A stretch of 64,000 bases of DNA from positions 23,495 through 87,494 of the IMG/VR virus record IMGVR_UViG_3300025597_000613. One strand, written 5' to 3'. Below, one piece after another: positions 5,299 to 61,626 of this stretch. Position numbers and translations under genes: made by a program. The notes beneath the pieces are model-generated. The model was not told the DNA's origin. It did no database searches and saw only the letters and a list, made by a program, of their open reading frames with translations. Source of the stretch: a virus (taxonomy: Duplodnaviria; Heunggongvirae; Uroviricota; Caudoviricetes). The first letter of the stretch is position 1, and each line of letters begins with the position of its first letter.

Positions 5299-5373
5299 TG
5301 GTCCGGCGTAGAGGAATCGAACCTCTATCAGCGGATTAGAAGTCCGCGGTTCTGTCCGTTGAACTAACGCCAG
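5299..5373 (-). tRNA. tRNA-Arg (anticodon TCT), 75 nt, CCA encoded
   Basis: hand-folded: acceptor CTGGCGT/ACGCCGG, D arm GTTC-AACGGACA-GAAC, anticodon arm GCGGA-CTTCTAA-TCCGC, T arm AGAGG-TTCGATT-CCTCT, discriminator A + CCA. Confidence 0.8.
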
Positions 5374-19062: not shown

Positions 19063-20265
19063 TTATCGACGCTTCGGGGAATGACTATCCGGCTCGTACC
19101 AGGCAGTCATACCAAACGGTGCAACCAACCGATGAGACGGGTCACCGTGAATCAGGAACAGGGTGTCGCAATAATTCTCATCACCCCAGCTACCACAAGG
19201 ATAACCGTCCGTCATCATAATGAATCGTTCAGGTTGCAGGTCCTTAGACTTCATGAACTCCCAATTACACATGAAATCGGTGCCACCGCCACCGGCCAGC
19301 GGATACTCATTGATTTCTTCGAGATTTTCCGGAGTGTACTTGATATGGTTGTACACGCGAGTATCGAAGCACCAAACATCCAGCTCAAAGTCCATGAACT
19401 GTTCCATAATGCCCTTAGTTTCGCCGAGCAAATCGCGCAGCATATCTTCAGACATAGAACCCGACGCATCGATGGAGACAGCGGCCTTGACCTTGAAGTC
19501 ATTCTTGGTAGCAGGCAGATAGATGCCCGAGGCCTGCATCTTACGCGAGCAACGATCCCAGGTAAAATCGCTCTTCACCATCGATTGAATCTTCATGTTA
19601 AGAATCTCGCGCCAGTCCATCTGCGGCTCGGTGAGATCCTTCAGCATGCGGCGCACACCGGCAGGGGTATTACCGGCACCGGATGCCTTCGCAGCCTGCA
19701 TCACAGCATTGCGAATTTCGTCACGCAGCGCGGCAACTTCTTCGGCCGACATGGGTTCACCACGACCATCACCGGAGCCGGGCTCAAGGTGGATGTCGAA
19801 CTCGGGGAAGTTTTGGTTCGGATCCTTCATCAGCAGTTCGTAGACTTCTTCAGCGAACATGCCCTTGTACTTTTCATCGATACAACCTTGCACACCCGAA
19901 GTCTTCGGATTCGGCATCTTACCGATGCGGTGCTCACTCAGTTCCAGATTGATAACGAAGTCGGCTGCCGCGTTCCACATCTTCGGCTTACGCTCACCAC
20001 GACGGTTCATGTGATCGTAGACACAGTGTTCCACTTCGTGCGCAACAAGGAAGATGGTCTCTTGTTTATCGAGTTTGGAGATGAAATCACGGTTGTAGTA
20101 GAAATAGCGACCGTCCGTACCGGCGGTCTTACACCAGTCTTCATCAGTCGCATCCTTGAGGATCAGGCGCGTGGCCAGCGTACCCCAAAACGGTTGCTGA
20201 AGGAGAAGGGAAATACGAGCGCGGGTGAGTTGCTCAAGAACGGCTGCGGGACTGTTATCTGCCAT
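19063..20265 (-). CDS. VWA-domain protein with N-terminal HExxH metallopeptidase-like domain (DUF2201-like, MoxR partner)
   Basis: HEVEHCVYDH (HExxH); MIDAS motif DASGSMS; start set at ATG preceded by AGAGG. Confidence 0.7.
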   Translation of the reverse strand: MADNSPAAVLEQLTRARISLLLQQPFWGTLATRLILKDATDEDWCKTAGTDGRYFYYNRDFISKLDKQETIFLVAHEVEHCVYDHMNRRGERKPKMWNAAADFVINLELSEHRIGKMPNPKTSGVQGCIDEKYKGMFAEEVYELLMKDPNQNFPEFDIHLEPGSGDGRGEPMSAEEVAALRDEIRNAVMQAAKASGAGNTPAGVRRMLKDLTEPQMDWREILNMKIQSMVKSDFTWDRCSRKMQASGIYLPATKNDFKVKAAVSIDASGSMSEDMLRDLLGETKGIMEQFMDFELDVWCFDTRVYNHIKYTPENLEEINEYPLAGGGGTDFMCNWEFMKSKDLQPERFIMMTDGYPCGSWGDENYCDTLFLIHGDPSHRLVAPFGMTAWYEPDSHSPKRR

Positions 20266-20331
20266 TGTAGACCTCTTAGTTGATGTTTGTATTTTAGTAG
20301 GATGTTGCGTAATGGTCAACCAGTTGCACCA

Positions 20332-20804: not shown

Positions 20805-21896
20805 TCAGTCTTCCAGGATGTACTTACCGTACTTCTCGTGGAACTGCTTGAACGCCTTCAGCTCGCGGTGGTTAATCAGTTCCACGTAGTCGCGCAGTGC
20901 GGTCTTAGCACCCAGGACGATCATCTCGGTCTGGAAGTTAGCCATCATGTACACGAAGAAGTTATCCACGCATTCATGCCACGCCTTCATATCGAAGCCG
21001 TCTTCCTTCGCCTTCGCCTTCGCGGTCCATTCCTGGAGCGTATAGCACATGGAGATGGTCAGCGAATACATGGCGCTCAGATCCTTGACGTTCAGATCCT
21101 TGACCTTACCCACCAGCACATCTTCCGGCTTCGGCATCTTGGCCGCAACACGACGGTGAGCAGCGAACTCGGTAGCCAGACCGTCACCAACGGTACCGGC
21201 GACCAGCGTCGTATTCAGCGATTCCGGCAGCTCGTCACCAATCAGCTGCGAAACGAATGCCCACGAACGCGGAGTAGCGAACGCCTTGTCCGGGCTCTTC
21301 GGATCGAAGTTGAAGAGCTTTTGCTTGTGGTGCGACAGGAAGCCCACGACGTCCGGATGGACCTTGGCACCAATCGCCCACTTCTGCCAGTCTTCGAAGT
21401 TAGCACCCATCTCGATGTGAACCAGACGGTTGGCCAGCGGGCTGGGCATACGGTAGGTAACACCCTTGTCGCTATCACGGTTGCCCGCGCACACCATCGA
21501 CACACCCTTCGGCAGCTTGTATTCGCCAACACGACGGTTCAGGATCAGCTGGTAGGCCGCAGCTTGCACGCTCGGCGGAGCAGCGTTGATTTCGTCCAGG
21601 AACAGGATTGCATTTTCCAGGAACGTGTCGGTCGGCAGGTCAGCCGGTTGCGCCCACTTCATCGTCTTCGATTCCGGATCAAAATACGGAATACCCTTGA
21701 TGTCGGTCGGTTCCAGCAGAAGCAGACGCATGTCGATAACGGGACGACCAGTCTCTTCGCCGATCTCGGCAATCAGTTCCGACTTGCCAATGCCCGGAGG
21801 GCCCCAGATCATCGCAGGGCGGCCAACCTTCATGCAACGGGTCAGCAGGGTTCGAACGTCGCGCGGACGGCTGGGATCACGGGTGGAATTGCTCAT
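20805..21896 (-). CDS. MoxR/CobS-like AAA+ ATPase
   Basis: Walker A GPPGIGKS; Walker B ILFLDEIN; ~360 aa single AAA module typical of MoxR/CobS family. Confidence 0.8.
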   Translation of the reverse strand: MSNSTRDPSRPRDVRTLLTRCMKVGRPAMIWGPPGIGKSELIAEIGEETGRPVIDMRLLLLEPTDIKGIPYFDPESKTMKWAQPADLPTDTFLENAILFLDEINAAPPSVQAAAYQLILNRRVGEYKLPKGVSMVCAGNRDSDKGVTYRMPSPLANRLVHIEMGANFEDWQKWAIGAKVHPDVVGFLSHHKQKLFNFDPKSPDKAFATPRSWAFVSQLIGDELPESLNTTLVAGTVGDGLATEFAAHRRVAAKMPKPEDVLVGKVKDLNVKDLSAMYSLTISMCYTLQEWTAKAKAKEDGFDMKAWHECVDNFFVYMMANFQTEMIVLGAKTALRDYVELINHRELKAFKQFHEKYGKYILED

Positions 21897-24865: not shown

Positions 24866-25960
24866 TCAATAGACGTAATCCTGCCAGTTCTTCTTTTCTG
24901 CCTTTTCCTTGCTGAAGACAACAACCGCGACATCCGGCGTGCCTTCGTTGAGGACGTAAGTGAAAGTACCCTTCTCAACGTCAATTGCCTTCAGGTAACG
25001 CTGATCCACATCCAGGGTGAAGGAAGTTTCCTCTTCGGTATCTTCTCCATTGCCATTGGGGTCGGTATCAATCCAAAGATTGATAGTATTGTGCATCATC
25101 GGATTACCACGGAAGGAATCAGGATTGACATGTTCAGGTCCGAATTCTTTGCCCTTTGCCATCACCTTGACATCATAGGTAGTATAACTACCTTGGACGA
25201 AGGGTTTGACGTTAAGCATTTCCAGTGCCTGTTGCGGGCTTTCGTTGTATCGATTCATTTCTTCGACAAGAGCCTTCAGCATGTCAAAGTTGATACTATC
25301 AAAGACCATGGTAAGGCGCACCACCGATTCGAGGTATTCCTTATTCAGAAGATTGTCTTCGCAGTAGCTACGAATGAAATCAGCCTCAAGTCCCTTATAT
25401 TCCAGGGCGTAGAAAATTCGACCCGGTCGATTAGTCATATTGCTGTTGATGCGACCACGATCGTTGGAAGTAAGCACAAACAGAGTCTTCGAAGGATAAA
25501 CACCATCAAGGAGAGTCAGCAGGGCTTCCTGGTCCTTCTCACTGTATACCTTCTCGAATTCATCAAAAACAACAACTTTCGGTTCAGTAATATCTTGGAT
25601 GAATTTATTGAAGGCGTCGCCATTGAAGGAATTATTGACGATAATGGTAGGAATACCACGCTCGGCCGCCTTACGGGTTACCAGTTTAGCAAGGAGGGTC
25701 TTGCCCGAGCCTTTTTCGCCATTCAGGAGCACACCAGTGCTTGCAGGACGAGAAAGGAAAGTATCAAGGATTCGATCGGCCTGACGCGGGGAATTACCGT
25801 AGATCTTACCGGTGATATCAAAGTCCTTGGTTTCAGTCAGAAAAAATCCCTCCAAGCTGACATTGACCATATAGGTGCCGACCGGAAGACCGTCACGAAT
25901 ATCGTATGCACCAGGTTGGGTAATAAAGAGATTTTCGCCTCGCTTAAGGAAGTGTGTCAT
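24866..25960 (-). CDS. AAA-family ATPase
   Basis: Walker A GEKGSGKT; Walker B VVVFDEFE; the antisense 421-aa plus-strand ORF was rejected. Confidence 0.65.
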   Translation of the reverse strand: MTHFLKRGENLFITQPGAYDIRDGLPVGTYMVNVSLEGFFLTETKDFDITGKIYGNSPRQADRILDTFLSRPASTGVLLNGEKGSGKTLLAKLVTRKAAERGIPTIIVNNSFNGDAFNKFIQDITEPKVVVFDEFEKVYSEKDQEALLTLLDGVYPSKTLFVLTSNDRGRINSNMTNRPGRIFYALEYKGLEADFIRSYCEDNLLNKEYLESVVRLTMVFDSINFDMLKALVEEMNRYNESPQQALEMLNVKPFVQGSYTTYDVKVMAKGKEFGPEHVNPDSFRGNPMMHNTINLWIDTDPNGNGEDTEEETSFTLDVDQRYLKAIDVEKGTFTYVLNEGTPDVAVVVFSKEKAEKKNWQDYVY

Positions 25961-30730: not shown

Positions 30731-31063
30731 TTACTGACTAGTACACCAACCGAAAGAAAGTATATACATGTCGTTGCTAATTTCACACAGTCCGTGTTCA
30801 TAAAGGTCCGGACGGAAATAATCAATCCTCCACCATCTTTTTACTGGACCGAGGATAAACATGCGATCTTTATCACTGGTACGGCTAAGGATAATGTTGA
30901 TTCTATGGTGGTTTTGACCGGTCTTTACAGGATCTTTGTGCTTAGGTACGCCACAACCCTTAGGCACATACAGCAGATGCAAATCACACCTAAAAACCGT
31001 AGAGCTAAAGAACGTGTGTTTTTTGTACCCACTATTCTGTCTGCCAAGCACCCATTTGAACAT
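30731..31063 (-). CDS. hypothetical protein (110 aa)
   Basis: minus-strand ORF. Confidence 0.4.
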   Translation of the reverse strand: MFKWVLGRQNSGYKKHTFFSSTVFRCDLHLLYVPKGCGVPKHKDPVKTGQNHHRINIILSRTSDKDRMFILGPVKRWWRIDYFRPDLYEHGLCEISNDMYILSFGWCTSQ

Positions 31064-31065
31064 GA

Positions 31066-31326
31066 TTATTTCCTGTTATAGGGAGGTAAAAAGGATCTGA
31101 TAGTTCTTTCTCTTTCGTAATCTTCTTTTGTCCACCCATACATCTTAATTCGTTTTTCAATGCAATCTTCCGACACAAATGGGTCGTCCAGTTGCCTCAT
31201 TCTTAATTGCACCACTCCCGTGTGTACTTCAGTAAAGGATGAACGCCGAAGTGCCTTAAACGTATCCTCTTCGGTATGATATGTAGTCATAAAAGGAAAA
31301 AGGTTGTGTACCATTATAGCACACAA
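31066..31326 (-). CDS. small protein, DTF-motif family member
   Basis: TEEDTFKALRRSSFTEV...MYGWTKEDYE; start uncertain (track start is TTG). Confidence 0.4.
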   Translation of the reverse strand: MCAIMVHNLFPFMTTYHTEEDTFKALRRSSFTEVHTGVVQLRMRQLDDPFVSEDCIEKRIKMYGWTKEDYERERTIRSFLPPYNRK

Positions 31327-32921: not shown

Positions 32922-33329
32922 TCATTCGCCGAGAATGTCCTTAACCCTCTGTCTATCTTGTGCCAATTCTGCTAGAATCTTTACATATTGGCTAAATTTT
33001 AGGTCGGAATCGTTACATCCGATAAGGTAGTTACTACCATCTTTCAGATATACGGTACCCAGCAAGGTTTCAACATCATCGGAGTCGTGGAACGTGTCAG
33101 TAAAGGCACGCTCGCTAAATGTTTGAGGCTGAATGGTCTTTTCCCAATCTACTCCGTATTTCTTTACATCCTCGCGGAGTTTCTTCATGGCAGCATCACT
33201 CTTGCGCCAATCATTATGCAAATATTCATAATGGCCGCCGTAGTAACTCCAATTACCATCGGTGAGTACTCCATTTTCAATCATGTAGGCCCACACAAAT
33301 TTTAGAGATTCGTCTTCTTTCTGTCCCAT
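32922..33329 (-). CDS. hypothetical protein (135 aa)
   Basis: minus-strand ORF. Confidence 0.4.
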   Translation of the reverse strand: MGQKEDESLKFVWAYMIENGVLTDGNWSYYGGHYEYLHNDWRKSDAAMKKLREDVKKYGVDWEKTIQPQTFSERAFTDTFHDSDDVETLLGTVYLKDGSNYLIGCNDSDLKFSQYVKILAELAQDRQRVKDILGE

Positions 33330-33562
33330 AATCTTCTCCCAAATTCCTTATAGTATTCTTCTGCTGCCCATCCATAAGGATGGAGTATCTTGTTTAGTTG
33401 TTCTTTATTTGTTGTCATGGTGTTGAGGTCACCATCGGTGTATGTTCCCGAATTAATAATTCCCTGGAGATGAAGACTAACTTCCTCGTAGGTACATCTA
33501 CGTAGTAATCTAAATGTTTCGTCCTCAGGTGCAGTCACAGTAATTTTTCCTGCAAGAAGCAC
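33302..33562 (-). CDS. small protein, DTF-motif family member
   Basis: EDETFRLLRRCTYEEV...YGWAAEEYY. Confidence 0.4.
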   Translation of the reverse strand: MLLAGKITVTAPEDETFRLLRRCTYEEVSLHLQGIINSGTYTDGDLNTMTTNKEQLNKILHPYGWAAEEYYKEFGRRLWDRKKTNL

Positions 33563-33738: not shown

Positions 33739-33927
33739 TTAAAAATTGCCTGATTTATCGTATTCGTTATATTCTTCTATGGTGTAGCCGGCTTCTTTCA
33801 GATACCTTTCAAGGTCTCTGCGCTCTCTGATAAAACCGAGGGCTATTTTTTTGAATATATGTTCGTATACTTCCTCGATAGGGCGGCGTGAGAGTCTACG
33901 AAAAGTGTCTTCCTCGGAAAAATCCAT
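33739..33927 (-). CDS. small protein, DTF-motif family member
   Basis: MDFSEEDTFRRLSRRPIEEV. Confidence 0.4.
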   Translation of the reverse strand: MDFSEEDTFRRLSRRPIEEVYEHIFKKIALGFIRERRDLERYLKEAGYTIEEYNEYDKSGNF

Positions 33928-33928
33928 G

Positions 33929-35122
33929 TTAACCCTTCACGCAGAGTACCTGCTTCAGTGTATGCACGATTTCCACAAGATCAGATTGTGCTGCCATTAC
34001 TTCATCAATGTCTTTGTAAGCACCGGGAATTTCATCCAGCACAGCATCATCTTTTCTGCATTCAACACCAGCAGTCTGTTCTGCCAAATCGAGCGAAGTG
34101 AACAATTTCTTCGCTTGATTGCGGCTATGCTTTCTGCCAGCACCGTGAGAGCAAGAGCAATAGGATTCGGCATTTCCCTTACCACGAACGATAAAGGATT
34201 TTGCACCCATCGAGCCAGGAATAATACCCATTTCGCCATAGCGTGCAGATACAGCACCCTTTCGAGTTACCCAAATACCTTGCTCACCGTGTTCTTCCCA
34301 CGAGGTGAAATTATGATGACAGTTGACAACTTCCCCCACAATTTTCATGGAAGGGAAACGAGTCTTCATCGCTGCCAACACCAGATTCATCATGGTGTCT
34401 CTATTCATACGGGCATAATCTTGAGCCCAATGCATAGCTTCAATATAGGAATCGAATTCCGGGGTGCCTTCGTCGAGCCAAGCAAGATCTTGGTCAGCAA
34501 GGCCCCAGGCACGCTTAATTGCCTGTTCCTTGGCCATTTCAATAGCCACGGTACCAATTTGGTTGCCAATACCGCGGCTGCCCGAATGTAGCATAATCCA
34601 GACACGATTCTCAGTATCAAGACAGATTTCGATAAAGTGGTTACCGCCACCAAGTGTCCCAACCTGACGACCAATACGATGTTCATCGGCACGTCCAAGC
34701 TTTGCCTTAAGTGCCAGCGAATCCCAACGCTTCATCACCTTAACAAGGTTCTTACGAAGAACATCGGCGTAGGGTCCCGATACGGCAGGAATGCCAGCCT
34801 TATGCTCATTGAAGCCGACAGGTACATCACGCTCGATTTGGTTGCGGATCGCAAACAAGGATTCCGGAAGATCGTCAGCAGTCAGGCTGGTCATCACGGC
34901 GCACATTCCGCAACCAATATCGACACCGACGGCTGCAGGAATGATTGCATTGCGAGTAGGAATAACAGAACCAACAGTGGCTCCCTTACCCATGTGAACG
35001 TCCGGCATAATGGCAATATGCCCTGCCAGAATCGGTAGAGTGGAGATGTTGGTGATTTGTGTAACGGCAGCCTCTTCGACCTCCATTGCACCAACCCACA
35101 TCTTTACATTTTGAATTTCCAT
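33929..35122 (-). CDS. rtcB: RtcB-family RNA ligase (3'-phosphate/2',3'-cyclic phosphate to 5'-OH)
   Basis: MPDVHMGKGATVGSVI, GGGNHFIE, SGSRGIGNQ, NCHHNF, CSHGAGRK cover all conserved RtcB metal/GTP-binding blocks; GAGGT SD confirmed. Confidence 0.9.
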   Translation of the reverse strand: MEIQNVKMWVGAMEVEEAAVTQITNISTLPILAGHIAIMPDVHMGKGATVGSVIPTRNAIIPAAVGVDIGCGMCAVMTSLTADDLPESLFAIRNQIERDVPVGFNEHKAGIPAVSGPYADVLRKNLVKVMKRWDSLALKAKLGRADEHRIGRQVGTLGGGNHFIEICLDTENRVWIMLHSGSRGIGNQIGTVAIEMAKEQAIKRAWGLADQDLAWLDEGTPEFDSYIEAMHWAQDYARMNRDTMMNLVLAAMKTRFPSMKIVGEVVNCHHNFTSWEEHGEQGIWVTRKGAVSARYGEMGIIPGSMGAKSFIVRGKGNAESYCSCSHGAGRKHSRNQAKKLFTSLDLAEQTAGVECRKDDAVLDEIPGAYKDIDEVMAAQSDLVEIVHTLKQVLCVKG

Positions 35123-35641
35123 TTAAACCTCGACGCCGTGCCTCTTAATATCTTCACGTAGTATATACTCAACAAACTGATTTAGCGACATATCAGCTTC
35201 ATGTGCCATTTCCATTAGCATTATTCGCTCTTTGTCATCCAACTCCAGTGTGACCATAATGCGAGTGTCGTATTCTTCACCCAAGAAAATTGCGCGAGCC
35301 TTTTCAATGATGTCTTCGGGCACTTCCAAATTGATGAACTTGCGTTCGTCAAATGACTTCTTCCACTTGACATTACGGCCCTTGGCTTCTTTCTTGTGTG
35401 CATCAATATAGTCGGGATGAATCCAACGATATTCCCTTTGATTGGCATAATCCCACGCCTGCATTTCGTACACAGTTTGATCTACAGTATCAAACAGAAT
35501 GAAGATTGTATCGGCCTCGTGCCCTTCTTTACTTTGATATTCCAGATATCGCACATTCGGGCCGTAGCAATTCCACATATATTCGGTACCACCAGTGATG
35601 TGGTATTCAATGCATTCGAGGAAGTCTTTGATTGTAATCAT
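35123..35641 (-). CDS. two-domain protein, paralog A: unknown N-domain + C-terminal ribbon-helix-helix
   Basis: WNCYG / EMQAWDY / EYRWIHPDYI / EKARAIFLGEEYD shared with 36839..37351; C-terminal RIMVTLELDDKERIMLMEMAHEADMSLNQFVEYIL fits a beta-alpha-alpha RHH. Confidence 0.55.
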   Translation of the reverse strand: MITIKDFLECIEYHITGGTEYMWNCYGPNVRYLEYQSKEGHEADTIFILFDTVDQTVYEMQAWDYANQREYRWIHPDYIDAHKKEAKGRNVKWKKSFDERKFINLEVPEDIIEKARAIFLGEEYDTRIMVTLELDDKERIMLMEMAHEADMSLNQFVEYILREDIKRHGVEV

Positions 35642-35880
35642 TTTATTGCCTTTAATTTTCTAAGTGTCCTTTGTTGATCATATTGTTCCATAACTTCCTT
35701 AATCAGGAATTTAAAACAAGATGTCCAACCTGAACCATCGGGGTTACGCGGGATTTCTCCACTCAAAAATGAGTGAGCGATGGGTATTACTCTTTCATTT
35801 TCCCAGACAGCAATCCAAGAGAGTGCATCCAACAGGGTTGGTTCTTCGCACGCTCTATCGATTGCTTCTTGGAAGTTCAT
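35638..35880 (-). CDS. hypothetical protein (80 aa) within the RNA-repair cassette
   Basis: 4-nt overlaps on both sides. Confidence 0.4.
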   Translation of the reverse strand: MNFQEAIDRACEEPTLLDALSWIAVWENERVIPIAHSFLSGEIPRNPDGSGWTSCFKFLIKEVMEQYDQQRTLRKLKAIK

Positions 35881-36842
35881 GCTTGTACGATTTCAATAAC
35901 ACGCGGTGCATGTACCTTCGGAAGATCTGCGCCACAGGATTTACGAGTCAGTTCCGGATGGTTCTTGGCGTAGTCTTGCACATACCAAAGCTGACCACAA
36001 CCACCACCAATATCATCCTGACCTGCAGGATCAAAGCAACGAGTAGAAAAACCACGCTCCAACATTAAACCCATGAAATCGGTGGCCAAAGCACGTTGGC
36101 GCTCATTTGCAGCAGCAACAGATTCATCCTGTTCGCAAACAACTGACACAGTGGATTGCCAAATCCTTGGATCAAACAGGCCAAACAGGCGATCAGCATC
36201 GGCAGCCGATGAATTATCGGCATGGGCGCAATAGTTAAAGAAAGGTTGGCGGCCGGTGGCCATAAACCACAGCATACCTTCTTCTGCAATTCTTTGCAGA
36301 TTGAGCTTGGCTTTGAAAGGGATCAATCTATCGCGTGCTTCGTCAGTGCTTTCATGTACGCTAAATTGCAGACCGACAGTGGGAATTTCCACAGAGATAT
36401 CCCTGACCCACTGATAATCCACATCGGGTGCGGAAGTGCTGATAAGCAATGCAGCAGTCGGATACAATGCATGCAGTTTTCTCAGCGCATCGGTAAGACC
36501 CTGTTTATTCAGCAAGGGCTCACCCATGGACATGAACATGATCTGAGTACGCTTCACCTTGGATTGATCGATATTCTGATCAGCAAACAGATGTTGCACC
36601 TGTGCAACAATTTCATCTCCCGTCAAACTACGGATAAAGAATTCACCAGTGCCGCAGAATCTGCATCCAACCGGGCAACCCGATTGAGTGCTGCAACAGA
36701 TGACCGTACGATCTTCGTAGGTTGGATACTTATACAACACCGCTTCTGCAACCGCGGCGCGTTCTTTCTCGTTGGTAAACACATACTTACGGACGTTTTG
36801 ATCCGAGCTTGGAATACAGCGAACACTTTCCCATTGATTCAT
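35877..36842 (-). CDS. RlmN/Cfr-family radical SAM RNA methyltransferase
   Basis: CPVGCRFC (Cx3Cx2C); MGEPLLN, ISTSAP and C-terminal GGGCGQL align with RlmN blocks (MGEPLLN, LSTSG, ACGQL catalytic Cys). Confidence 0.75.
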   Translation of the reverse strand: MNQWESVRCIPSSDQNVRKYVFTNEKERAAVAEAVLYKYPTYEDRTVICCSTQSGCPVGCRFCGTGEFFIRSLTGDEIVAQVQHLFADQNIDQSKVKRTQIMFMSMGEPLLNKQGLTDALRKLHALYPTAALLISTSAPDVDYQWVRDISVEIPTVGLQFSVHESTDEARDRLIPFKAKLNLQRIAEEGMLWFMATGRQPFFNYCAHADNSSAADADRLFGLFDPRIWQSTVSVVCEQDESVAAANERQRALATDFMGLMLERGFSTRCFDPAGQDDIGGGCGQLWYVQDYAKNHPELTRKSCGADLPKVHAPRVIEIVQA

Positions 36843-37351
36843 TTTTTGTCCTTGATATAGTCTGTTAGAATTTGGTTAACAAATTCATTCAGTGTTAGAT
36901 CTTCTTCATGCGCCATACACATCAATTGGTATTTGTCCTCTTCGGAGAGGTCAACCCTTACCAGCAATCTGGAATCGTATTCAATTCCGAGATAGATTGC
37001 ACGAGCCTTTTCAAGCATGTCATCGAGTTCTTCAATATCAATGAATTGATTATCATCAATGGATTGATAAAAATCGACACGTCGACGTTTAGCTTCCGCA
37101 AATGCAGATTCGATATAACCAGGATGGATCCAGCGATATTCTCGGAAGGATTTTCTTTCCCACGCCTGAATTTCAAATACCTGCTGGGTGTTACGATCGA
37201 AGACACAACTTACAGTAACTTCGTTATCTTTGCTTACCATTCTGGAATGGGAAATTGCCTGTGCGTTTCCACCGTAGCAATTCCATTGGAATTCATAGCC
37301 ATCAACTACATTGTAATTGATAATTTTCAAAAAATCATCGAGATTTATCAT
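36839..37351 (-). CDS. two-domain protein, paralog B (homolog of 35123..35641) with C-terminal RHH
   Basis: same conserved blocks (WNCYG, EIQAWE, EYRWIHPGYI, EKARAIYLGIEYD) and RHH-like C-terminus. Confidence 0.55.
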   Translation of the reverse strand: MINLDDFLKIINYNVVDGYEFQWNCYGGNAQAISHSRMVSKDNEVTVSCVFDRNTQQVFEIQAWERKSFREYRWIHPGYIESAFAEAKRRRVDFYQSIDDNQFIDIEELDDMLEKARAIYLGIEYDSRLLVRVDLSEEDKYQLMCMAHEEDLTLNEFVNQILTDYIKDKK

Positions 37352-37620
37352 TTGGATCCAGTTAAACGTTGGACGATTAATTTCTGTTCATGCTCTGCCA
37401 TGAGAGCGGTCAATGTAATTTTAGCAGGATCCTGTGATTCGGCAAATGTTACCAGCTCACAATCTTGATAACAAGACAGTGATTTTGAATAAGTTGTAAT
37501 CAATGAAAAATGTGCCTTCAATGAAGGTAGAGTCCAAACCTTACCCGTCTTAAGCCATTTAGGCGGATGACCGCCACTGGAATATTTGCCATCCTTATTT
37601 CTAATTTTGTAAAGTATCAT
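37348..37620 (-). CDS. hypothetical protein (90 aa)
   Basis: minus-strand ORF, 4-nt overlap. Confidence 0.4.
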   Translation of the reverse strand: MILYKIRNKDGKYSSGGHPPKWLKTGKVWTLPSLKAHFSLITTYSKSLSCYQDCELVTFAESQDPAKITLTALMAEHEQKLIVQRLTGSK

Positions 37621-37829
37621 TTTACACCATATTTTAGGATTAGCATATTCATCTCAGTGTCATCTAATTTACATAGCCTGCAGACTTCCTTCAATGTGAT
37701 TTGGTCACCGGCTATGTACCATCTACCTAGGTAGATGTATGGATGAAAATCATCGCCGGTCTGTGCTTCGTGGGTATACTCCTCAAAGAGAAGAATTTTT
37801 CTTCCAACTACACTTTCTCGAGTAACCAT
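37617..37829 (-). CDS. hypothetical protein (70 aa)
   Basis: minus-strand ORF, 4-nt overlap. Confidence 0.4.
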   Translation of the reverse strand: MVTRESVVGRKILLFEEYTHEAQTGDDFHPYIYLGRWYIAGDQITLKEVCRLCKLDDTEMNMLILKYGVK

Positions 37830-38599
37830 TACAGTTCCAATATTAGATTCTTATCAAAATTTGGATTCAATTCATCAGGATAATATCCAAAGGGATTACA
37901 TACCACCCTGATATCATTAATCATGTAATCAAGGCTGCGATGTGTATGTCCATGCAGCCACAATTTTACATTTCCATGATAGGCAATTTGTTCTTCGATG
38001 CTTGCATGGTATAAATGATCACTATAGGTATCACGTCCGTTGAGCTTTAATCCATTGCCCGGACTGTGGTGCGTGATAACAACGGTGGGACCATCGAAGG
38101 GTTTTTCAATTTCCTTCAGATAAAAATCCATGAATTCATCGTGTTGCTTAAGGATGAAGGCAGGTGTAATTCTACGATAATTTTCATCGTAGATAACTTG
38201 ATAATCGGACATTTTTCGATGTGCGTATGCCATAATCAGTGGATCACCATCGTCGAAACTAGTCCACATGGTTCCACCGATAAATCTAACTCCATCGATC
38301 CACCTTACATCATTATGAAGAAAGTGAAAATTCTTAGGGCCCGATTCTTCGTAGATTTTCCATTCCTCAATGACTTTATCAAATCTGTGCTCATAGAATT
38401 CATGATTGCCACAGATACGAAGAACATATTTGAAATGTTCAGACAATTCTGTCATGAATGGTTGCGAATATGCACCAATATCAATATCGCCGGCAAGGAT
38501 AAGGATAGTCTCCTTATCCTGATCTGATTTTTCCCAGAGGTGTTCCCAGCGGCGACCGCTGAACTCGAGGTGAAGGTCGGAAAGTAATCTAATCTTCAT
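37829..38599 (-). CDS. calcineurin-like metallophosphoesterase (phage Ser/Thr-phosphatase-like)
   Basis: DLHLE, ILAGDIDIG (GDxxDxG), CGNHEFY (GNHE), HGHTH; start set at ATG 38599 (MKIRLLSD) to clear the HNH gene. Confidence 0.7.
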   Translation of the reverse strand: MKIRLLSDLHLEFSGRRWEHLWEKSDQDKETILILAGDIDIGAYSQPFMTELSEHFKYVLRICGNHEFYEHRFDKVIEEWKIYEESGPKNFHFLHNDVRWIDGVRFIGGTMWTSFDDGDPLIMAYAHRKMSDYQVIYDENYRRITPAFILKQHDEFMDFYLKEIEKPFDGPTVVITHHSPGNGLKLNGRDTYSDHLYHASIEEQIAYHGNVKLWLHGHTHRSLDYMINDIRVVCNPFGYYPDELNPNFDKNLILEL

Positions 38600-38608
38600 A
38601 AATATGCC

Positions 38609-39268
38609 ATGGATTATCAAAAACATTATACACGGCTTATCGAACGTGCGCAAGATAGAATCTTACCGGACTACTCTGAAAAACATCATATATTGCCAAG
38701 ATGCCTCGGTGGTTCAAATTCTAAATCAAATATTGTAAAATTAACACCCGAGGAACACTATGTTGCCCATCAGTTATTATCTAAGATACATCCAGAAAAT
38801 CATTCGCTGAAAAAAGCTGCATGGATGATGACAGTAAGATCAGCAAATCAGCAAAGAAATAATAAAGCCTACGGATGGATTAAAAGAAATGCTCGCCCGA
38901 TGGGCATCACCAATGGTATGTTTGGGAAGACACATTCGGATGAGATAAAAACCAAACTTGCAGAATTAGCCAAACACAGATTTTCAGGTAAGACCTATGA
39001 GGAATTATACGGAAAAGAAAAATCTGATAAATTAAAATTCCAGAGATCAATCAAAGCAAAAGAATTGAGGGCAAAACATCCGACTGTGGGAAAACTCAAC
39101 CCGAATGCTAAATCTTATAAATTTACCAATCCCGAAGGGAATGAATTTTATGTATCTGGAAATTTGAAAGAATTCTGTAAGACAAATAGTCTATGGATTG
39201 AGAAAATTATAGATGTTGCAAAAGGACGAATACCAGAATATAGAGGTTGGAAAATTATCTATGTGTAA
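38609..39268 (+). CDS. HNH homing endonuclease (freestanding, plus strand)
   Basis: N-terminal HHILPRCLGGSNSKSNIVKLTPEEHYVAH is an HNH_3-type motif; opposite strand to neighbours, inserted between two minus-strand genes. Confidence 0.75.
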   Translation: MDYQKHYTRLIERAQDRILPDYSEKHHILPRCLGGSNSKSNIVKLTPEEHYVAHQLLSKIHPENHSLKKAAWMMTVRSANQQRNNKAYGWIKRNARPMGITNGMFGKTHSDEIKTKLAELAKHRFSGKTYEELYGKEKSDKLKFQRSIKAKELRAKHPTVGKLNPNAKSYKFTNPEGNEFYVSGNLKEFCKTNSLWIEKIIDVAKGRIPEYRGWKIIYV

Positions 39269-39522
39269 TCTCCTTCAGTTCTGGCAAATCTCTCAATATC
39301 AAATTCACTTTCGGTCCAACCATATTTCCGGTATGCCTTATTCCATGCGTCCTTAATCATTTCTTTAATTACATCTAATTCGGCCTTACTGGCGGTCTTA
39401 TAACGCTTTGCATGCTTCCTCATTAACCGACGAGCCTCTTGCGCCTCCTCACTGGTATCCAAATCCTCGAATGTTTTCCTTCCTAATTTTCTAAAACATT
39501 CATCTTCGTCATTTTCACTCAT
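39259..39522 (-). CDS. small protein, DTF-motif family member (variant)
   Basis: DEDECFRKLGRKTFEDL...YRKYGWTESEFD. Confidence 0.4.
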   Translation of the reverse strand: MSENDEDECFRKLGRKTFEDLDTSEEAQEARRLMRKHAKRYKTASKAELDVIKEMIKDAWNKAYRKYGWTESEFDIERFARTEGDYT

Positions 39523-47370: not shown

Positions 47371-48245
47371 GCAAGGCTTGCGTACAGATGCATTTGAAGA
47401 TTGAGTCTTAGTCCGTGCTGAATACAATACTTCGCAGTGTATTCGTGATTTTCTTGATTAGCCTTCAGATTAAGAAGACCTGGTTCCCAGAAACTAATTA
47501 CTTCATCTACAGTTGATCTTTCATCTAATGTGATATTACCTTGCTTTTCAGAACGCAATAGCTTGATCTTCTGAGGGAAAGTATTGTAGATGTTCATGGG
47601 GCTGACATAGATTTCTTTCTTAGGATTGCTGAGTCTCCATTCAAGTGCCCAATCAGGAATGGTGTTGTATGGATTGCCAGGTTCAGCAGTCATAACAAAT
47701 TTCAAACAGTCCGCACGTTCAAGAATAGTTTTTGATGGTGCAAGATACTTTACCGCTACACCATTCTTTTCTACACACTTTGGGCTGCATACAAGTGTAA
47801 CACCCGCCGGAACGGTAGTATCAAGAATACCATTGCTCTCAACCTGTACTGCACCAAAATGCTCCAACTGTCTCTGCATGAATGCACTAATATTATCCTG
47901 TAGCAATGGTTCGCCACCCGTCATAACAAGTACCACTCCTGGATAGTTATTGAAACCATTTACGGCCCAGGTAGGTGCAGATTCACCTTTGTCATTCCAG
48001 AAGTTGCAAATTGTTTCATACATTTTACTTTCTATCTGGGTGGTATTTAACCAGTCACCATCATCGAAGAATGTATCACAGAAACTGCAATCAAGATTAC
48101 ATTTTGCTAATCTAATAAACAATGCAACTTTTCCAGCGTGTGGGCCTTCGCCCTGCAATGTGAAAAACATACTTGTTACAAAAAGACTATCGGCGGGTGC
48201 ATCCTTAAAGAATTTCTTGCCTACAATTTCATTGGTACCAAACAT
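47367..48245 (-). CDS. queE: 7-carboxy-7-deazaguanine synthase QueE (radical SAM)
   Basis: FFTLQGEGPHAGKVALFIRLAKCNLDCSFCDT aligns with the QueE N-terminal signature (TLQGEG...FIRL.GC..C..CDT). Confidence 0.85.
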   Translation of the reverse strand: MFGTNEIVGKKFFKDAPADSLFVTSMFFTLQGEGPHAGKVALFIRLAKCNLDCSFCDTFFDDGDWLNTTQIESKMYETICNFWNDKGESAPTWAVNGFNNYPGVVLVMTGGEPLLQDNISAFMQRQLEHFGAVQVESNGILDTTVPAGVTLVCSPKCVEKNGVAVKYLAPSKTILERADCLKFVMTAEPGNPYNTIPDWALEWRLSNPKKEIYVSPMNIYNTFPQKIKLLRSEKQGNITLDERSTVDEVISFWEPGLLNLKANQENHEYTAKYCIQHGLRLNLQMHLYASLA

Positions 48246-48835
48246 TATTCTTTTGCTCCTTTTAGCTTATCCATAATTTTAGATGCTTCCCATAGATAAG
48301 TCAAGTCATCTGCTGAAAGCGGCCCCTTATCTTTAGATATAGCAATAATTTCCTCAAACACGGTATCCCTCATTCGGCGTTTTGTACTTGCTGTTATGCC
48401 GGCGGCCATTTCTCCACCGATAGAAACTGCCTTTCCGAAAGCTTCTGCAGCCTCGTCGACATTGATTTCCTTAGCCCATTTAACTGAACCATCTCTTTCA
48501 AGTCGCACAATTTCTTGATTATTGGTACCATGCAAGGCAAATATAGACAATGGCGGATTATATCCAACGGTTGTACCCATTCCTAGAGCACCTGTACCAT
48601 ACGCTGTCGTAAAAATGGGGGCGTTTACGCCGCCAGCCATTGCGACCCCGGTTGCATTTATTGTAGGGGCAGGTGCTGCATTTGTTACAACACTTGTGAT
48701 ACCGGTATTATAGGCATGTGTAGGATAATGTGTAGGATAATTCGTCATAGTAGGAACTGCCTTCTCTTTAATTGGTGTCTTCTTTACGGTTAAAGATGTA
48801 ATAAGTTTCTGAAAAATTTGTTTCGGATTAAGCAT
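48245..48835 (-). CDS. hypothetical protein with Thr/Ala/Gly-rich low-complexity segment (196 aa)
   Basis: minus-strand ORF. Confidence 0.4.
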   Translation of the reverse strand: MLNPKQIFQKLITSLTVKKTPIKEKAVPTMTNYPTHYPTHAYNTGITSVVTNAAPAPTINATGVAMAGGVNAPIFTTAYGTGALGMGTTVGYNPPLSIFALHGTNNQEIVRLERDGSVKWAKEINVDEAAEAFGKAVSIGGEMAAGITASTKRRMRDTVFEEIIAISKDKGPLSADDLTYLWEASKIMDKLKGAKE

Positions 48836-59048: not shown

Positions 59049-60617
59049 TTACTCATCGAGATTGATAAGATCTTCCTTATCGAGACTTGCAAGTTCTTCG
59101 ACGGTAGGTACGTGTTCTTCGTTACCTTCCTCTTCACCACCGAATAATGATTCAAAAGTGGTTACTGCCTTCTTGTCGCCGAAGCTGACATAGTCAAGGA
59201 ATGCCTGATTCTCCTTCAACATAGTATACGGATCTTTATTTGAGGGGTCAAGAAGTTCTTCTACGAAATTATTAAAGAATAGAATTGAATTAGGGACAAA
59301 ATCACTAATGTTGGTTTGCTTCTTCTTATCTCTCATTTGATACCAGTCTTTGTAACTGATATTTTTACGAACTGCATATTCGATGTCAGCTAATCTATTG
59401 ATTTCCTGAACAGCCTGAATGTGGTTGTAGACATTATGCGCCATTACCAATGCATAGGTAGTGGTATCCCAGCTTGTCTTACCAATCTTGTCTTGCTTGT
59501 TCTTATCGGTGGGACCCATTACGCACATATCACCAGTTGTCAAACGTTCCATAATTGGGCCCTGGAATGGCATTGCATAATCTGTGCCTTTAAGTCCCTT
59601 GTCGTCGAGGCCGCGGCCCATTGCGTATGTTAGCTGATCTGGCTTGAAATAATTGTAGTTATAGGACAATGCATAGCCACCCGCTGCCACAAATGGGCTT
59701 GCAGCGTCAAAGCTGATGTTGACATTAGGATTATCGTGCTTCCTCAATAATCTCTCAATGGATGTCAAATAGCATGCCCAATCAAGTCTACCAATGCCCA
59801 AGAAGTGAATCCAGTCCTTGCCTTCGAGGAGACCGTCCCTGCGTAGATCAAGCATTCGTTCAAGAACAGTTTTCATGTTCTTCATGTTAATACCTGCAAA
59901 TGCATAACCTTCCAGAGTATGGTTACGTGGATAGCCCATTAATTCTACGGAATCTGGATTACTGAAATGCTTAACTTCCTCGTACCATTCTTTAGAATTT
60001 TCATTATCGCTACCAGATAGGACATTTAGGAATTTTGTCTTTCCCGGAATTCTATTCTTGATAAAATAATGCAGATTGTGGACAGAGATATCCAGCGTAT
60101 CTTCAAATTTAGTCAATCCTGTTTTGGCACTGAGTGGTGGCTTGGCCGCAAAGGCAGGAACATCCAGCGTCATTGACCAATCTGCTGTGTGTTCGAGATA
60201 ACGAAGAATTTCTTCCCTGAGCTTGTCACCTTCGGGGCCCTTCACTGTTGCCCAATCCAGTTTAATAACACCGGTAGCGATTTGGAATCCACCCGAGTCA
60301 CCGATGAGAATAGTTTTCTCCCGATCGCGCTCGTGGATCATAGGTTCCCTCTTGTCACATTTATCAAGATTTCTCTCTGCGTGACCTGCCGAATACAATC
60401 CAAATTTGTAATTGAAGTAACTACCTTCTTCCTTCAGAAAATTAAGGCCTTCGATTCCATATTCGAAATTCTTTGGAATACGCTCAGCCGGAATAAAATT
60501 CGGATCTGATTGTGCCTTTCCGAGATGTGTAGTATAGAAGCCACTAATTGCTGGGAGATATTTTGCCCATCCGCCAGCCAGATGTCTTTCTGTGAAATTT
60601 ACTCTGTTTTTTGTCAT
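59049..60617 (-). CDS. dpdA: TGT-family transglycosylase, DpdA-like (DNA 7-deazaguanine insertion)
   Basis: ILIGDSGGFQ matches TGT catalytic-Asp motif (LTDSGGFQ); FLGIGRLDW resembles TGT LMGVGKPEDL; co-located with QueE/QueD-like genes. Confidence 0.6.
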   Translation of the reverse strand: MTKNRVNFTERHLAGGWAKYLPAISGFYTTHLGKAQSDPNFIPAERIPKNFEYGIEGLNFLKEEGSYFNYKFGLYSAGHAERNLDKCDKREPMIHERDREKTILIGDSGGFQIATGVIKLDWATVKGPEGDKLREEILRYLEHTADWSMTLDVPAFAAKPPLSAKTGLTKFEDTLDISVHNLHYFIKNRIPGKTKFLNVLSGSDNENSKEWYEEVKHFSNPDSVELMGYPRNHTLEGYAFAGINMKNMKTVLERMLDLRRDGLLEGKDWIHFLGIGRLDWACYLTSIERLLRKHDNPNVNISFDAASPFVAAGGYALSYNYNYFKPDQLTYAMGRGLDDKGLKGTDYAMPFQGPIMERLTTGDMCVMGPTDKNKQDKIGKTSWDTTTYALVMAHNVYNHIQAVQEINRLADIEYAVRKNISYKDWYQMRDKKKQTNISDFVPNSILFFNNFVEELLDPSNKDPYTMLKENQAFLDYVSFGDKKAVTTFESLFGGEEEGNEEHVPTVEELASLDKEDLINLDE

Positions 60618-60814
60618 TTGAATCTGTAATCGTTTAGTTTGGTAATGAAATCGTCGACATTCCAGCCATGATCCACAATAATATGGTGGTAGAATTCGTG
60701 AAGCGTAAGTTGAAAAGTTTGTGGATTTACAGTAACTCTATCATTGATAATATTTCTTACCGTCCTAAAGTCTGTTCTCTTTAAGGCTTCGAAAGTCCTG
60801 TCGTAATCGTCCAT
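60614..60814 (-). CDS. small protein, DTF-motif family member
   Basis: MDDYDRTFEALKRTDFRTV...HGWNVDDF. Confidence 0.4.
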   Translation of the reverse strand: MDDYDRTFEALKRTDFRTVRNIINDRVTVNPQTFQLTLHEFYHHIIVDHGWNVDDFITKLNDYRFK

Positions 60815-60821
60815 ATTGTAT

Positions 60822-61073
60822 TTAGATTTTTGGCCGTGGAGGAAGCAATATTCCCTTTAGAAGTTTCTTTGCAAACTTCTTGTCATTCCTGATTCTTTCT
60901 TCTAACTCATCCATTCGAGGTTTCATTTCGGGATCAGATAAACGAACTGGTTCGCCATTTTCCCAAAATCCGCCACGGGCTTCGGCAGCCCGGAGATCAC
61001 GCCATGTGTGATAATCCGGATACTTTAGTGCCCATAGGGTTTCTAAGTAATCCGGTGTTTTCTTAGGCATCAT
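60822..61073 (-). CDS. hypothetical protein (83 aa)
   Basis: minus-strand ORF. Confidence 0.4.
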   Translation of the reverse strand: MMPKKTPDYLETLWALKYPDYHTWRDLRAAEARGGFWENGEPVRLSDPEMKPRMDELEERIRNDKKFAKKLLKGILLPPRPKI

Positions 61074-61401: not shown

Positions 61402-61626
61402 TTAAGCCTTTCTTTCCCATCCTAATTTAATAAGAAGCTTTTCGTGCTCTGCACTAAAATCATCGTATGTCCAGCCATATGCTGCTAATTTTTCTACAAT
61501 ATATGGTCGAAACAATATTTCTGGCCGAAATGTATTGGGATTTATTATTACCCAACTATCCTTGTTTAGAACTGAAACAAAGGGCTCTCGTTGCAGTCTT
61601 CGAAAAGTATCACCCTCGTTCGTCAT
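61402..61626 (-). CDS. small protein, DTF-motif family member
   Basis: MTNEGDTFRRLQREPFVSV...YGWTYDDF. Confidence 0.4.
   Translation of the reverse strand: MTNEGDTFRRLQREPFVSVLNKDSWVIINPNTFRPEILFRPYIVEKLAAYGWTYDDFSAEHEKLLIKLGWERKA

Follow-up and report, generated by a model that had tools for sequence, protein, structure and literature searches.

Five consecutive genes occupy the minus strand of the 64,000-nucleotide stretch of DNA analysed here (the window), which belongs to an uncultured jumbo phage with contigs of about 240 kb and relatives of 350-370 kb. A preliminary description of this DNA had placed five ORFs here and quoted the motifs CPVGCRFC, MGEPLLN, GGGCGQL, WNCYG, EYRWIHP and EKARAI.LG.EYD; all five ORFs are present and every motif was found. 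The genes and the flanking genes that bear on their interpretation are:

37829-38599, minus strand: calcineurin-like metallophosphoesterase, the upstream anchor of a variable interval
36839-37351, minus strand: parA, 170 aa, a divergent second member of the par family
35877-36842, minus strand: rSAM, 321 aa, an RlmN/Cfr-like class A radical SAM methylase without the N-terminal accessory domain
35638-35880, minus strand: sm80, 80 aa, a small conserved three-helix protein
35123-35641, minus strand: parB, 172 aa, a phage-family protein with an unmatched alpha/beta N-domain and a probable C-terminal ribbon-helix-helix (RHH)
33929-35122, minus strand: RtcB RNA ligase, 397 aa
31365-32615, minus strand: SPFH/Band-7 protein (Pfam Band_7, 5.4e-6), the downstream anchor
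30731-31063, minus strand: small 2OG-Fe(II)-oxygenase-like protein, 110 aa, which recurs beside RtcB in other phages

How specific to these genes is their tight packing? The five had been described as joined throughout by ATGA overlaps. Overlaps of 4 nt do occur at the parA/rSAM, rSAM/sm80 and sm80/parB junctions, but parB and RtcB abut with zero gap (TAA followed by ATG). Upstream of the five genes, 4-nt and 1-nt overlaps go on through a 90-aa gene, a 70-aa gene and the metallophosphoesterase gene (37348-38599); downstream, the genes are separated by gaps of at most 43 nt or overlap as far as the SPFH gene at 31365. No minus-strand terminator-like site with a stem above 7 bp lies inside the block, and 31329-31301 is where a strong one first appears. 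Because the overlap chain runs beyond the five genes, it is not specific to them; it is a general property of this region of the genome. In tightly packed jumbo-phage genomes, translational-coupling overlaps alone thus say little about whether genes form a functional cassette.

The RNA ligase is a genuine full-length member of its family, as profile searches show: Pfam PF01139 is matched at E 8.5e-126 (421 bits; cut-off 27) over profile positions 1-426 of 426, PHROG 1075 ('tRNA splicing ligase') at 2.4e-144, and RtcB homologs in the PDB at up to 9e-36. It is 53-61% identical to the RtcBs of isolated jumbo phages (phiCbK-like, BcepSaruman and Psa21-like). Residues D68, C71, H162, H179, H269, H270 and H326, the last within SCSHGAGR, are invariant across seven phage RtcBs, one of them only 30% identical. 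We take these residues to be the metal-binding and guanylylated positions known in Escherichia coli as D75, C78, H168, H185, H281 and H337. The enzyme would join RNA 2',3'-cyclic-phosphate or 3'-phosphate ends to 5'-OH ends and, judging from the established chemistry of the family, its most likely role is to reseal tRNA or rRNA that host ribonuclease defences have cut.

RlmN and Cfr are class A radical SAM RNA methylases that act on C2 or C8 of A2503 in 23S rRNA and on C2 of A37 in tRNA. The proposed kinship of rSAM to these enzymes is upheld by profile searches. RlmN and Cfr models make up its top eight NCBIfam matches, led by TIGR00048 (E 1e-27), and the profile of its family aligns a core of ~270 residues with RlmN and Cfr structures in the PDB at 1e-29 to 2e-23. 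The scores fall far below the curated cut-offs (97 of 290 bits for TIGR00048, 77 of 530 for CfrAB, 71 of 550 for rSAM_Cfr), and rSAM is a relative rather than an ortholog. The [4Fe-4S]/SAM motif CX3CX2C is C56-PVG-C60-RF-C63. Both extra catalytic cysteines are kept as well: C49, seven residues before C56, aligns with the cysteine of RlmN 'VCVS' (C118 in E. coli), and C282 of GGGCGQL aligns with RlmN 'AACGQL' as the counterpart of the methyl-carrying E. coli C355. Loss of the second catalytic cysteine, named beforehand as a finding that would speak against the assignment, is thus not seen. Throughout the phage family, C49, C56, C60, C63 and C282-G-Q-L do not vary. The N-terminal accessory (RNA-binding) domain of RlmN is missing, residues 12-285 of rSAM matching positions 76-342 of the 355-position TIGR00048 model and the alignment to an RlmN chain in the PDB beginning at RlmN residue 85. 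From the conserved set of cysteines, rSAM most likely methylates a carbon of adenine (C2 or C8) by a methyl-cysteine radical mechanism, and a tRNA anticodon loop would be a likelier target than A2503 of 23S rRNA.

The par proteins belong to a large phage-only family. As described earlier, parA and parB are paralogs (44% identity, E 2e-52) whose N-terminal domain has no matches and whose tail is probably RHH. A recent duplication is not indicated: among the family members found, none comes closer to parA than 51-54% identity, and parA is a divergent homolog of parB, not a recent duplicate. It occurs only in the seven contigs of this phage species and is missing from the closest relative (L018), and two par copies are found at none of 71 other par loci. 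In both proteins, the C-terminal 40 residues fit a strand-helix-helix pattern like that of RHH domains (CopG/Arc/MetJ) and HicB antitoxins, and an AlphaFold2 model places two terminal helices after an extended segment. Comparison of the tail with an approximate CopG sequence gave a weak but concordant match (hhalign E 5.6e-4, probability 30%, 35 columns), and Pfam HicB matches to these 40 residues are likewise weak and sub-threshold. The par proteins are predicted to act as dimeric DNA-binding regulators of the RHH type, with an N-terminal domain peculiar to phages. Elsewhere, par genes lie directly beside other enzyme genes, such as those for a GFO/IDH/MocA-type oxidoreductase, a 518-aa protein and the metallophosphoesterase. 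The last is the commonest par neighbour, found within 10 kb at 20 of 71 par loci and often directly adjacent. The small protein sm80 is predicted to form an all-helical hairpin, has no match in Pfam, PHROG or PADLOC, and is found beside unrelated genes elsewhere.

The metallophosphoesterase (Pfam Metallophos 8.8e-12; PHROG 1649 2.3e-49; start likely at M19 of the listed ORF) and the SPFH gene, whose syntenic position is kept in L018, L019, L024, L012-14 and L257, delimit an interval in which almost every combination of these genes is found among related phages. The exact five-gene order is confined to one phage species (seven contigs). L018 has rSAM-sm80-parB-RtcB with a parB 99% identical to that of the window; L024 has rSAM-par-RtcB; L020 and L022 have both enzymes but no par; L107 and L257 have par and RtcB without rSAM. 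Of these genes, one 373-kb contig carries sm80 and RtcB only, and L012-14 par only. When both enzymes are present in the interval, rSAM is always upstream of RtcB in this lineage. Between the window and L018, identity is about 100% over roughly 36450-34950, drops to ~80% in the outer portions of the rSAM and RtcB genes, and is 66-74% in the flanking DNA, a pattern that probably reflects recent recombination.

Beyond this lineage, neighbours within 10 kb were counted at 80 rSAM, 71 par and 80 RtcB viral loci. RtcB accompanies rSAM at seven of the 80 rSAM loci (it is absent within 10 kb at the other 73), par at five and sm80 at one; no single neighbour family exceeds 15 of 80. Around par, RtcB occurs at 6 of 71 loci, rSAM at 5 and an adjacent sm80 at 1, and 65 have neither enzyme within 10 kb. 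An RlmN-like gene is found at three of the 80 RtcB loci. At locus L089, an RlmN-like methylase and RtcB are 4.3 kb apart. The 5-kb flanks of the rSAM genes of phages ANB28, Arash and Vibrio phage 496E54-1 contain no RtcB, and genome-wide searches at E 1e-8 found none in seven rSAM-bearing Vibrio phages or in Aeromonas phage Ahp1. The ANB28 methylase gene itself is situated inside a tRNA gene cluster.

A second family of N-terminally truncated RlmN/Cfr-like radical SAM proteins (~300 aa; PHROG 27142, 'Fe-S-cluster redox domain-containing') is also found in jumbo phages, including 201phi2-1, Psa21, RVTF4, CcrColossus and Brevundimonas phages. Its best NCBIfam match is RlmN (2e-16). It is only ~29% identical to rSAM, lacks the cysteine at -7 and has SCGTF rather than CGQL as its C-terminal motif. 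In the Pseudomonas phages Psa21, D6 and RVTF4 and in IMG/VR loci L233 and L261-263, the gene precedes RtcB by 1-2 kb on the same strand; in Caulobacter, Brevundimonas and Viktualia phages it is 36-52 kb from RtcB. LR756500, 201phi2-1 and Phabio apparently have the methylase without RtcB. RtcB is also encoded in 4 of 13 phage records carrying the window rSAM family and in at least 16 of 22 carrying the second, frequencies far above the base rate of 578 in 50,697 phage records (1.1%), although these are raw counts that ignore kinship and genome size. The recurrent pairing argues for some functional or selective coupling, with genome size, shared ancestry and the modular nature of phage genomes as confounders. 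The link between methylase and ligase drawn in the preliminary description thus stands in part: the second family and genome-level co-occurrence speak for it, and the RtcB count at rSAM loci speaks against it.

We favor, with a probability of about 0.6, the reading that the five genes are separate auxiliary genes in a hyperplastic accessory interval, forming a loose neighbourhood and not a fixed machine. The interval would probably be transcribed as one section of an extensive, densely packed array of early or middle genes, and its residents may be gained, lost and swapped through recombination among related phages. RtcB and the methylase would need neither each other nor the par and sm80 proteins; they may share one RNA pool, which one would repair and the other harden. 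A loose methylase-ligase link is possible, and the comparative data do not show par and sm80 to be part of it.

Alternatively, the RlmN-like methylase and RtcB could be a two-enzyme counter-defence pair, with or without the 2OG-Fe(II)-like protein, an explanation that we consider conceivable but rather unlikely. The methylase would modify a carbon of an adenine, located either in rRNA or in the tRNA anticodon loop or its vicinity, and thereby keep host ribotoxins from cutting or re-cutting the RNA; molecules already cut would be resealed by RtcB, following the 'repair and immunise' logic of Pnkp/Hen1 with different enzymes. In its favour, each of two families only ~29% identical sits upstream of RtcB, 1-3 kb away and in the same orientation, in jumbo-phage lineages that are unrelated, with L089 as a third case, and there is an excess of genomes encoding both; the tRNA-cluster setting of the ANB28 gene also fits. 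So does the 2OG-Fe(II)-like protein, which flanks RtcB in both the window lineage and the Psa21/D6/RVTF4 lineage. The 110-aa protein of the window is 35% identical (E 1e-17) to a 113-aa RVTF4 protein encoded immediately upstream of RtcB, which itself matches Pfam 2OG-FeII_Oxy_3 at 2.5e-4, and a homolog directly follows RtcB in L018; this protein may be a partner of the two enzymes, although 6 of 10 loci of its family have no RtcB nearby. Against the pair stand the 73 rSAM loci without a neighbouring RtcB, the 36-52 kb that separate the second family from RtcB in three groups of phages, the phages that seemingly have a methylase and no RtcB (the Vibrio phages, Ahp1, LR756500, 201phi2-1 and Phabio), and the majority of RtcB phages, which lack such a methylase. 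Furthermore, without the cysteine at -7 the second family may differ from the first in chemistry. That phages recruited truncated RlmN/Cfr-like methylases alongside RtcB at least twice, as a base-methylation analogue of Pnkp/Hen1, is doubtful on the same evidence. In a further conceivable variant, the truncated methylase would have switched substrate, for example to adenine in phage DNA.

The dedicated five-gene operon of the preliminary description is not supported by the comparison, since the overlaps run past the block, L018 lacks parA, relatives mix subsets of the genes and the families mostly occur apart. Nor does an autoregulated RNA repair/modification operon, in which parA would control or chaperone the methylase and parB RtcB, seem at all probable. 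Each par gene does directly precede an enzyme gene, overlapping or abutting it, par adjoins other enzyme genes elsewhere, and the RHH tail suggests DNA binding. However, the order is limited to a single species, a phage with a nearly identical parB does without parA, L020 and L022 carry both enzymes without par, both enzymes are missing near most par genes, a double set of par is seen nowhere else, sm80 elsewhere lies beside unrelated genes, and the overlap chain is general to the region; the comparative data largely refute this reading. A toxin-antitoxin-like or anti-defence pair unrelated to RNA repair, with par as a HicB-like antitoxin and sm80 as its small partner, is very improbable: the HicB resemblance, the automatic JGI names 'HicB family' or 'HTH antitoxin' given to some par members and the position of sm80 directly before parB, like hicA before hicB, are countered by HicB scores under the Pfam cut-off that concern the tail only and leave out the N-terminal partial RNase-H-like fold of HicB, by an all-helical sm80 without a HicA match or the dsRBD-like fold of HicA, and by the adjacency of sm80 and par at a single one of 71 par loci.

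Cleavage of tRNA or rRNA is a common form of host defence, exemplified by PrrC, RloC, PARIS, Septu, retron effectors and Cas12a3. To our knowledge, phages have so far been described to counter it with spare tRNAs and RNA ligases. A phage radical SAM methylase that hardens RNA against nucleases would, if real, represent a new class of counter-defence and the first RlmN/Cfr-type role beyond housekeeping and antibiotic resistance. Handles on this question are provided by the two phage RlmN-like families, which are widespread and uncharacterised, by natural variants that have or lack RtcB, and by isolated carriers (ANB28, Arash, Psa21, D6, RVTF4, 201phi2-1 and CcrColossus).

Among known systems, the window RtcB shares with the E. 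coli enzyme a full-length domain of ~400 aa. Differently to the RtcR-RtcA-RtcB operon, no RtcA or RtcR is encoded by the adjoining genes, as a scan of the eight ORFs between 33739 and 37829 found neither domain. With RlmN and Cfr, rSAM has in common the CX3CX2C motif, the cysteine at -7, the C-terminal CGQL cysteine and the MGEPL motif; it differs in lacking the accessory domain of ~75 residues, in a conserved phage-specific C-terminal tail of ~35 residues and in being a stand-alone gene carried by phages of many types. A parallel in proposed logic is Pnkp/Hen1, where an RNA ligase function is also encoded beside an RNA methyltransferase. The conserved operonic pairing of that system has no equivalent here, where the two enzymes are neighbours at 7 of 80 rSAM loci and 3 of 80 RtcB loci, in two or three lineages. 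Pnkp, Hen1 and an ATP-grasp ligase are absent here, and the methylase would act on a base carbon, whereas the Hen1 system methylates the 2'-OH.

Five consecutive genes lie on the minus strand of the window, where the open reading frame listing places them just as the preliminary description did and recovers every motif that it quoted. In order of transcription they are:

36839-37351, minus strand, parA, 170 aa
35877-36842, minus strand, radical SAM protein (rSAM), 321 aa
35638-35880, minus strand, small protein sm80, 80 aa
35123-35641, minus strand, parB, 172 aa
33929-35122, minus strand, RtcB, 397 aa

The ATGA overlaps described between neighboring genes are present at parA/rSAM, rSAM/sm80 and sm80/parB; parB and RtcB abut, with a TAA followed by an ATG. 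Tight junctions extend well beyond the block. Upstream, reading of the window gives a 1-nt overlap between the calcineurin-like Metallophos gene and a 70-aa gene, and 4-nt overlaps between the latter and a 90-aa gene and between the 90-aa gene and parA; downstream, gaps of at most 43 nt or overlaps continue until the SPFH gene at 31365. By a consensus scan, terminator-like sites with stems above 7 bp are lacking from the minus strand of the block, and the first strong site, with a 13-bp stem, lies past the SPFH gene at 31329-31301. Since there is no such site in the block and the tight junctions run past it, the five genes are probably co-transcribed, as part of a far longer array. The overlaps are a regional property and no mark of a five-gene unit; the apparent operon structure is mostly genome compaction.

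The five-gene cassette is no unit. The interval from Metallophos to SPFH is syntenic across related phages and combinatorial in gene content, and the exact five-gene order occurs in a single phage species, on seven metagenomic contigs that measure up to 239 kb.

Gene arrangements in the window and in other phages (Met, Metallophos gene; 70 and 90, the 70-aa and 90-aa genes; par, a gene of the parA/parB family; L numbers, IMG/VR loci)
Window and six other same-species contigs: Met-70-90-parA-rSAM-sm80-parB-RtcB-...-SPFH
L018, the closest relative (parB 99% identical): Met-63aa-rSAM-sm80-parB-RtcB, without parA
L019: rSAM-sm80-(about 0.6 kb)-par-RtcB
L024/L025: rSAM-par-RtcB, without sm80
L020, L022: rSAM and RtcB, without par
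L107, L257: par and RtcB, without rSAM
373-kb contig: sm80 and RtcB only
L012-14: par only

Three samples of loci were compared, comprising 80 from IMG/VR with the family of the radical SAM protein (57-85% identity), 71 with par and 80 with RtcB. Within 10 kb of rSAM, RtcB is found in 7 of the 80 loci, six of them the closest relatives of the window, par in 5 and sm80 in 1. Among the par loci, RtcB accompanies 6 and the methylase 5, and none of the 71 holds two par copies; any RlmN-like gene is present in 3/80 RtcB loci. The cassette proposed in the preliminary description gives way to an interval of changing content, whose genes are mostly apart in all three samples. Clustering of same-strand ORFs within 4 kb yields no shared partner for the methylase either: no family reaches more than 15 of the 80 loci, and those common to up to 15 reflect sub-lineage synteny. 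None of the five proteins matches a PADLOC defence model; Metallophos matches PDC-S10 weakly.

The DNA of the window and L018 is ~100% identical from ~36450 to 34950 (7760-9260 in L018). The tract spans sm80 and parB entirely, and with them the 3' two-thirds of the methylase gene and the initial ~170 nt of RtcB; identity is ~80% in the outer parts of rSAM and RtcB and 66-74% in the flanking genes. The tract looks like a recent exchange for which the two enzyme genes served as homology arms, and exchange of this kind fits the variable content between the two in other relatives.

The source is an uncultured jumbo phage, with relatives of 350-370 kb. No isolated phage is near in DNA: the block and 24 kb of the window, searched by megablast against 50,697 phage records, gave 0 matches. 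The window also codes for DNA polymerase B, a 5'-3' exonuclease, AAA ATPases and sugar-modifying enzymes, and the following features lie around the block:

3554-3629 and 5299-5373, minus strand, tRNA-Met(CAT) and tRNA-Arg(TCT), two phage tRNA genes ~30 kb from the block
19063-20319 and 20805-21896, minus strand, DUF2201 metallopeptidase/VWA-like protein beside an AAA (MoxR-like) ATPase
24866-25960, a further ATPase, AAA/STAND-like
30731-31063, minus strand, 2OG-Fe(II)-oxygenase-like protein, 2.9 kb downstream of RtcB
38609-39268, plus strand, HNH homing endonuclease (PHROG 655, 7e-51)

The HNH gene lies just upstream of the Metallophos gene on the opposite strand and overlaps the longest Metallophos ORF in its N-terminal extension. 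It is missing from two otherwise identical same-species contigs (L255, L256) and is therefore a presence/absence mobile insertion. Small proteins of 62-87 aa form a multi-copy family scattered over the gene array, at 33739-33927, 33302-33562, 31066-31326 and 39259-39522 (all minus strand), with weaker matches at 61405-61668 and 60617-60856. Its members share the motif E-[ED]-D-[TE]-(C)-F-[RK]-x-L-x-R ... Y-G-W-[TA]-x-E-[ED]-[YF]; an HMM of four copies retrieves six ORFs, and pairwise BLASTP values range from 1e-4 to 5e-6.

For rSAM, RlmN and Cfr models take the first eight places among the NCBIfam matches (1e-27 to 3e-16), the next family standing at 0.003, and a ten-member family profile aligns over the whole core with the sequences of RlmN/Cfr crystal structures (1e-29 to 2e-23). 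The cluster motif C56-x3-C60-x2-C63 is invariant in the phage family, as are C49 (at -7) and C282 in GGGCGQL, the counterparts of E. coli C118 and C355. A missing catalytic Cys or a closer match to a non-RlmN family would have spoken against the RlmN/Cfr assignment of the preliminary description; with both Cys kept and RlmN/Cfr profiles matching best, the assignment holds, and the protein can be placed by its sequence within the RlmN/Cfr clade. It is nonetheless orthologous to neither RlmN nor Cfr: its score is 97 bits, the RlmN cut-off being 290 bits, and it carries a conserved C-terminal tail of ~35 residues. Its residue 12 aligns with position 76 of the RlmN model, which means that the accessory domain at the N-terminus is missing. 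The methylase represents a new, N-terminally truncated subfamily of the RlmN/Cfr kind. The family is abundant in viral metagenomes (250 confirmed IMG/VR stretches) and is auto-annotated as RlmN by JGI and in one GenBank record. Homologs ~64% identical in BUCTxx99 (OR529408.1, 96510-97454) and JGB6 (OQ436456.1, 50121-51062) are labelled 'prohibitin family / SPFH Band 7 protein', apparently a mis-annotation. A full-text search of the literature turned up no paper that deals with RlmN-like enzymes of phages or the pairing of RtcB with RlmN, and a survey of jumbo phages treats RtcB and never mentions radical SAM or RlmN (PMC7824862).

As judged from its family, the methylase would C-methylate adenine through the RlmN/Cfr methyl-cysteine radical mechanism. 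Its gene lies within a tRNA cluster in Stenotrophomonas phage ANB28, adjoins NAD-salvage genes in Vibrio phages and has hypothetical genes around it in Salmonella phage Arash; no RtcB is present in the 5-kb flanks examined at these loci. A tRNA gene lies within 10 kb of rSAM in 21 of the 80 loci, which is suggestive and, in tRNA-rich phages, not discriminating. Speculatively, tRNA is favored as the target over A2503 of 23S rRNA: some phages carry the gene inside or close to their tRNA clusters, m2A2503 is already made by the host, and the missing N-terminal domain hints at a change in substrate recognition. Equally speculatively, methylation might shield RNA from nucleases.

The RtcB assignment is unambiguous, borne out by matches to Pfam PF01139 over the full length (E 8.5e-126), to the PHROG 'tRNA splicing ligase' (2.4e-144) and to RtcB homologs in the PDB (best 9e-36), and by candidate catalytic Asp, Cys and His residues that are invariant in an alignment of seven phage RtcBs. 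The protein is an ordinary member of the RtcB family, which joins 2',3'-cyclic-phosphate or 3'-phosphate ends to 5'-OH ends. Most plausibly, to go by the family, the phage enzyme would reverse cuts made by host defence nucleases in tRNA or rRNA.

The paralogy of parA and parB claimed earlier is confirmed, at 44% identity. The par family is large, an exhaustive profile search giving 1262 clusters at 50% identity, nearly all of 160-190 aa, on contigs that reach 388 kb. Within it parA stands apart (best identity to any member found, 54%) and has no tblastn match among isolated phages. A recent tandem duplication is ruled out by this outlying position and the 44% identity. The AlphaFold2 model of par is confident (pLDDT 92.9). 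The C-terminal 40 residues look RHH-like: sub-threshold Pfam HicB matches are confined to this tail, and hhalign aligns it with CopG over strand, helix, helix (E 5.6e-4). The par proteins are best read as putative DNA-binding proteins of the RHH type that also have a partner or sensor domain specific to phages. Their commonest neighbor is neither RtcB nor the methylase; it is the Metallophos gene (20/71 loci), which often abuts or overlaps par in either gene order (L111, L118-L131, L159-L160 and others). In other sub-lineages par is followed directly by the gene for a GFO/IDH/MocA-type oxidoreductase or preceded by that for a 518-aa protein. Neighbor clustering reveals no universal partner, only lineage-specific ones (Metallophos, a 145-aa protein, the 518-aa protein and the oxidoreductase). 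As for sm80, its 25 clusters and invariant Cys and Trp residues mark it as a real conserved protein; it is predicted to form a three-helix hairpin, and a fold search returns generic helical hairpins only and no informative relative. A reading of par and sm80 as HicAB is rejected, the test for HicAB membership having failed.

The small 2OG-Fe(II)-like protein is a third recurring neighbor. It is 35% identical to the product of the gene immediately upstream of RtcB in Pseudomonas phage RVTF4; its homologs lie directly after RtcB in L018 (10285-10638) and next to RtcB in RVTF4-type Pseudomonas jumbo phages (5877-6218 in L172, the RVTF4 locus). The proteins have 110-117 aa and conserved H-x-D-P and H-x-R-x-N motifs. 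RtcB is absent nearby in 6 of 10 other loci with this family.

RVTF4 also has a radical SAM protein of a second, distant RlmN-like family (47911-48804, 297 aa), ~29% identical to the window enzyme and with RlmN as its best NCBIfam match (2e-16). RlmN resolves the enzyme-RNA crosslink with a Cys at -7 from the cluster motif; the second family has no Cys at this position. It is found in RVTF4 and 21 other phage records, among 201phi2-1-like, CcrColossus-like and Brevundimonas jumbo phages, and corresponds to the PHROG 'Fe-S-cluster redox domain-containing'. In RVTF4 the gene lies four small genes upstream of RtcB on the same strand, and in Psa21, D6 and four IMG/VR loci (L233, L261-263) it precedes RtcB by 1.1-1.2 kb. 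Both genes are also present, 36-52 kb apart, in Viktualia, CcrColossus, CcrPW and eight Brevundimonas phages; 201phi2-1 and Phabio have the second family and apparently no RtcB.

For the family of the window, a chimeric query of the methylase sequence and the RtcB C-terminus finds both in the genomes of ANB28, BUCTxx99, JGB6 and Arash, and the methylase without RtcB in seven Vibrio phages, Aeromonas phage Ahp1 and an uncultured 462-kb phage. RtcB is present in at least 20 of 35 methylase-bearing records vs 578 of 50,697 overall, an excess inflated by shared ancestry and large genome size. Most RtcB phages are without the methylase, among them the Erwinia RAY-like group, Ralstonia RP12, the P. 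aeruginosa PA1C-like group and most phiCbK-like phages. Of the co-occurrence of RtcB and RlmN-like genes raised in the preliminary description, what stands is a recurring connection, with the adjoining position in the second family and the sharing of genomes; in the sampled loci the two are rarely close. The association is a loose one and may be functional. Two independent phage RlmN-like families adjoin RtcB, and their role there is of specialist interest.

Among known systems, the test for membership of a Pnkp/Hen1-type operon failed. The enzymes are not shared, and neither is a conserved operon. Pnkp/Hen1 is nevertheless the closest system-level analogue, the common ground being the logic of a ligase combined with a methylase.
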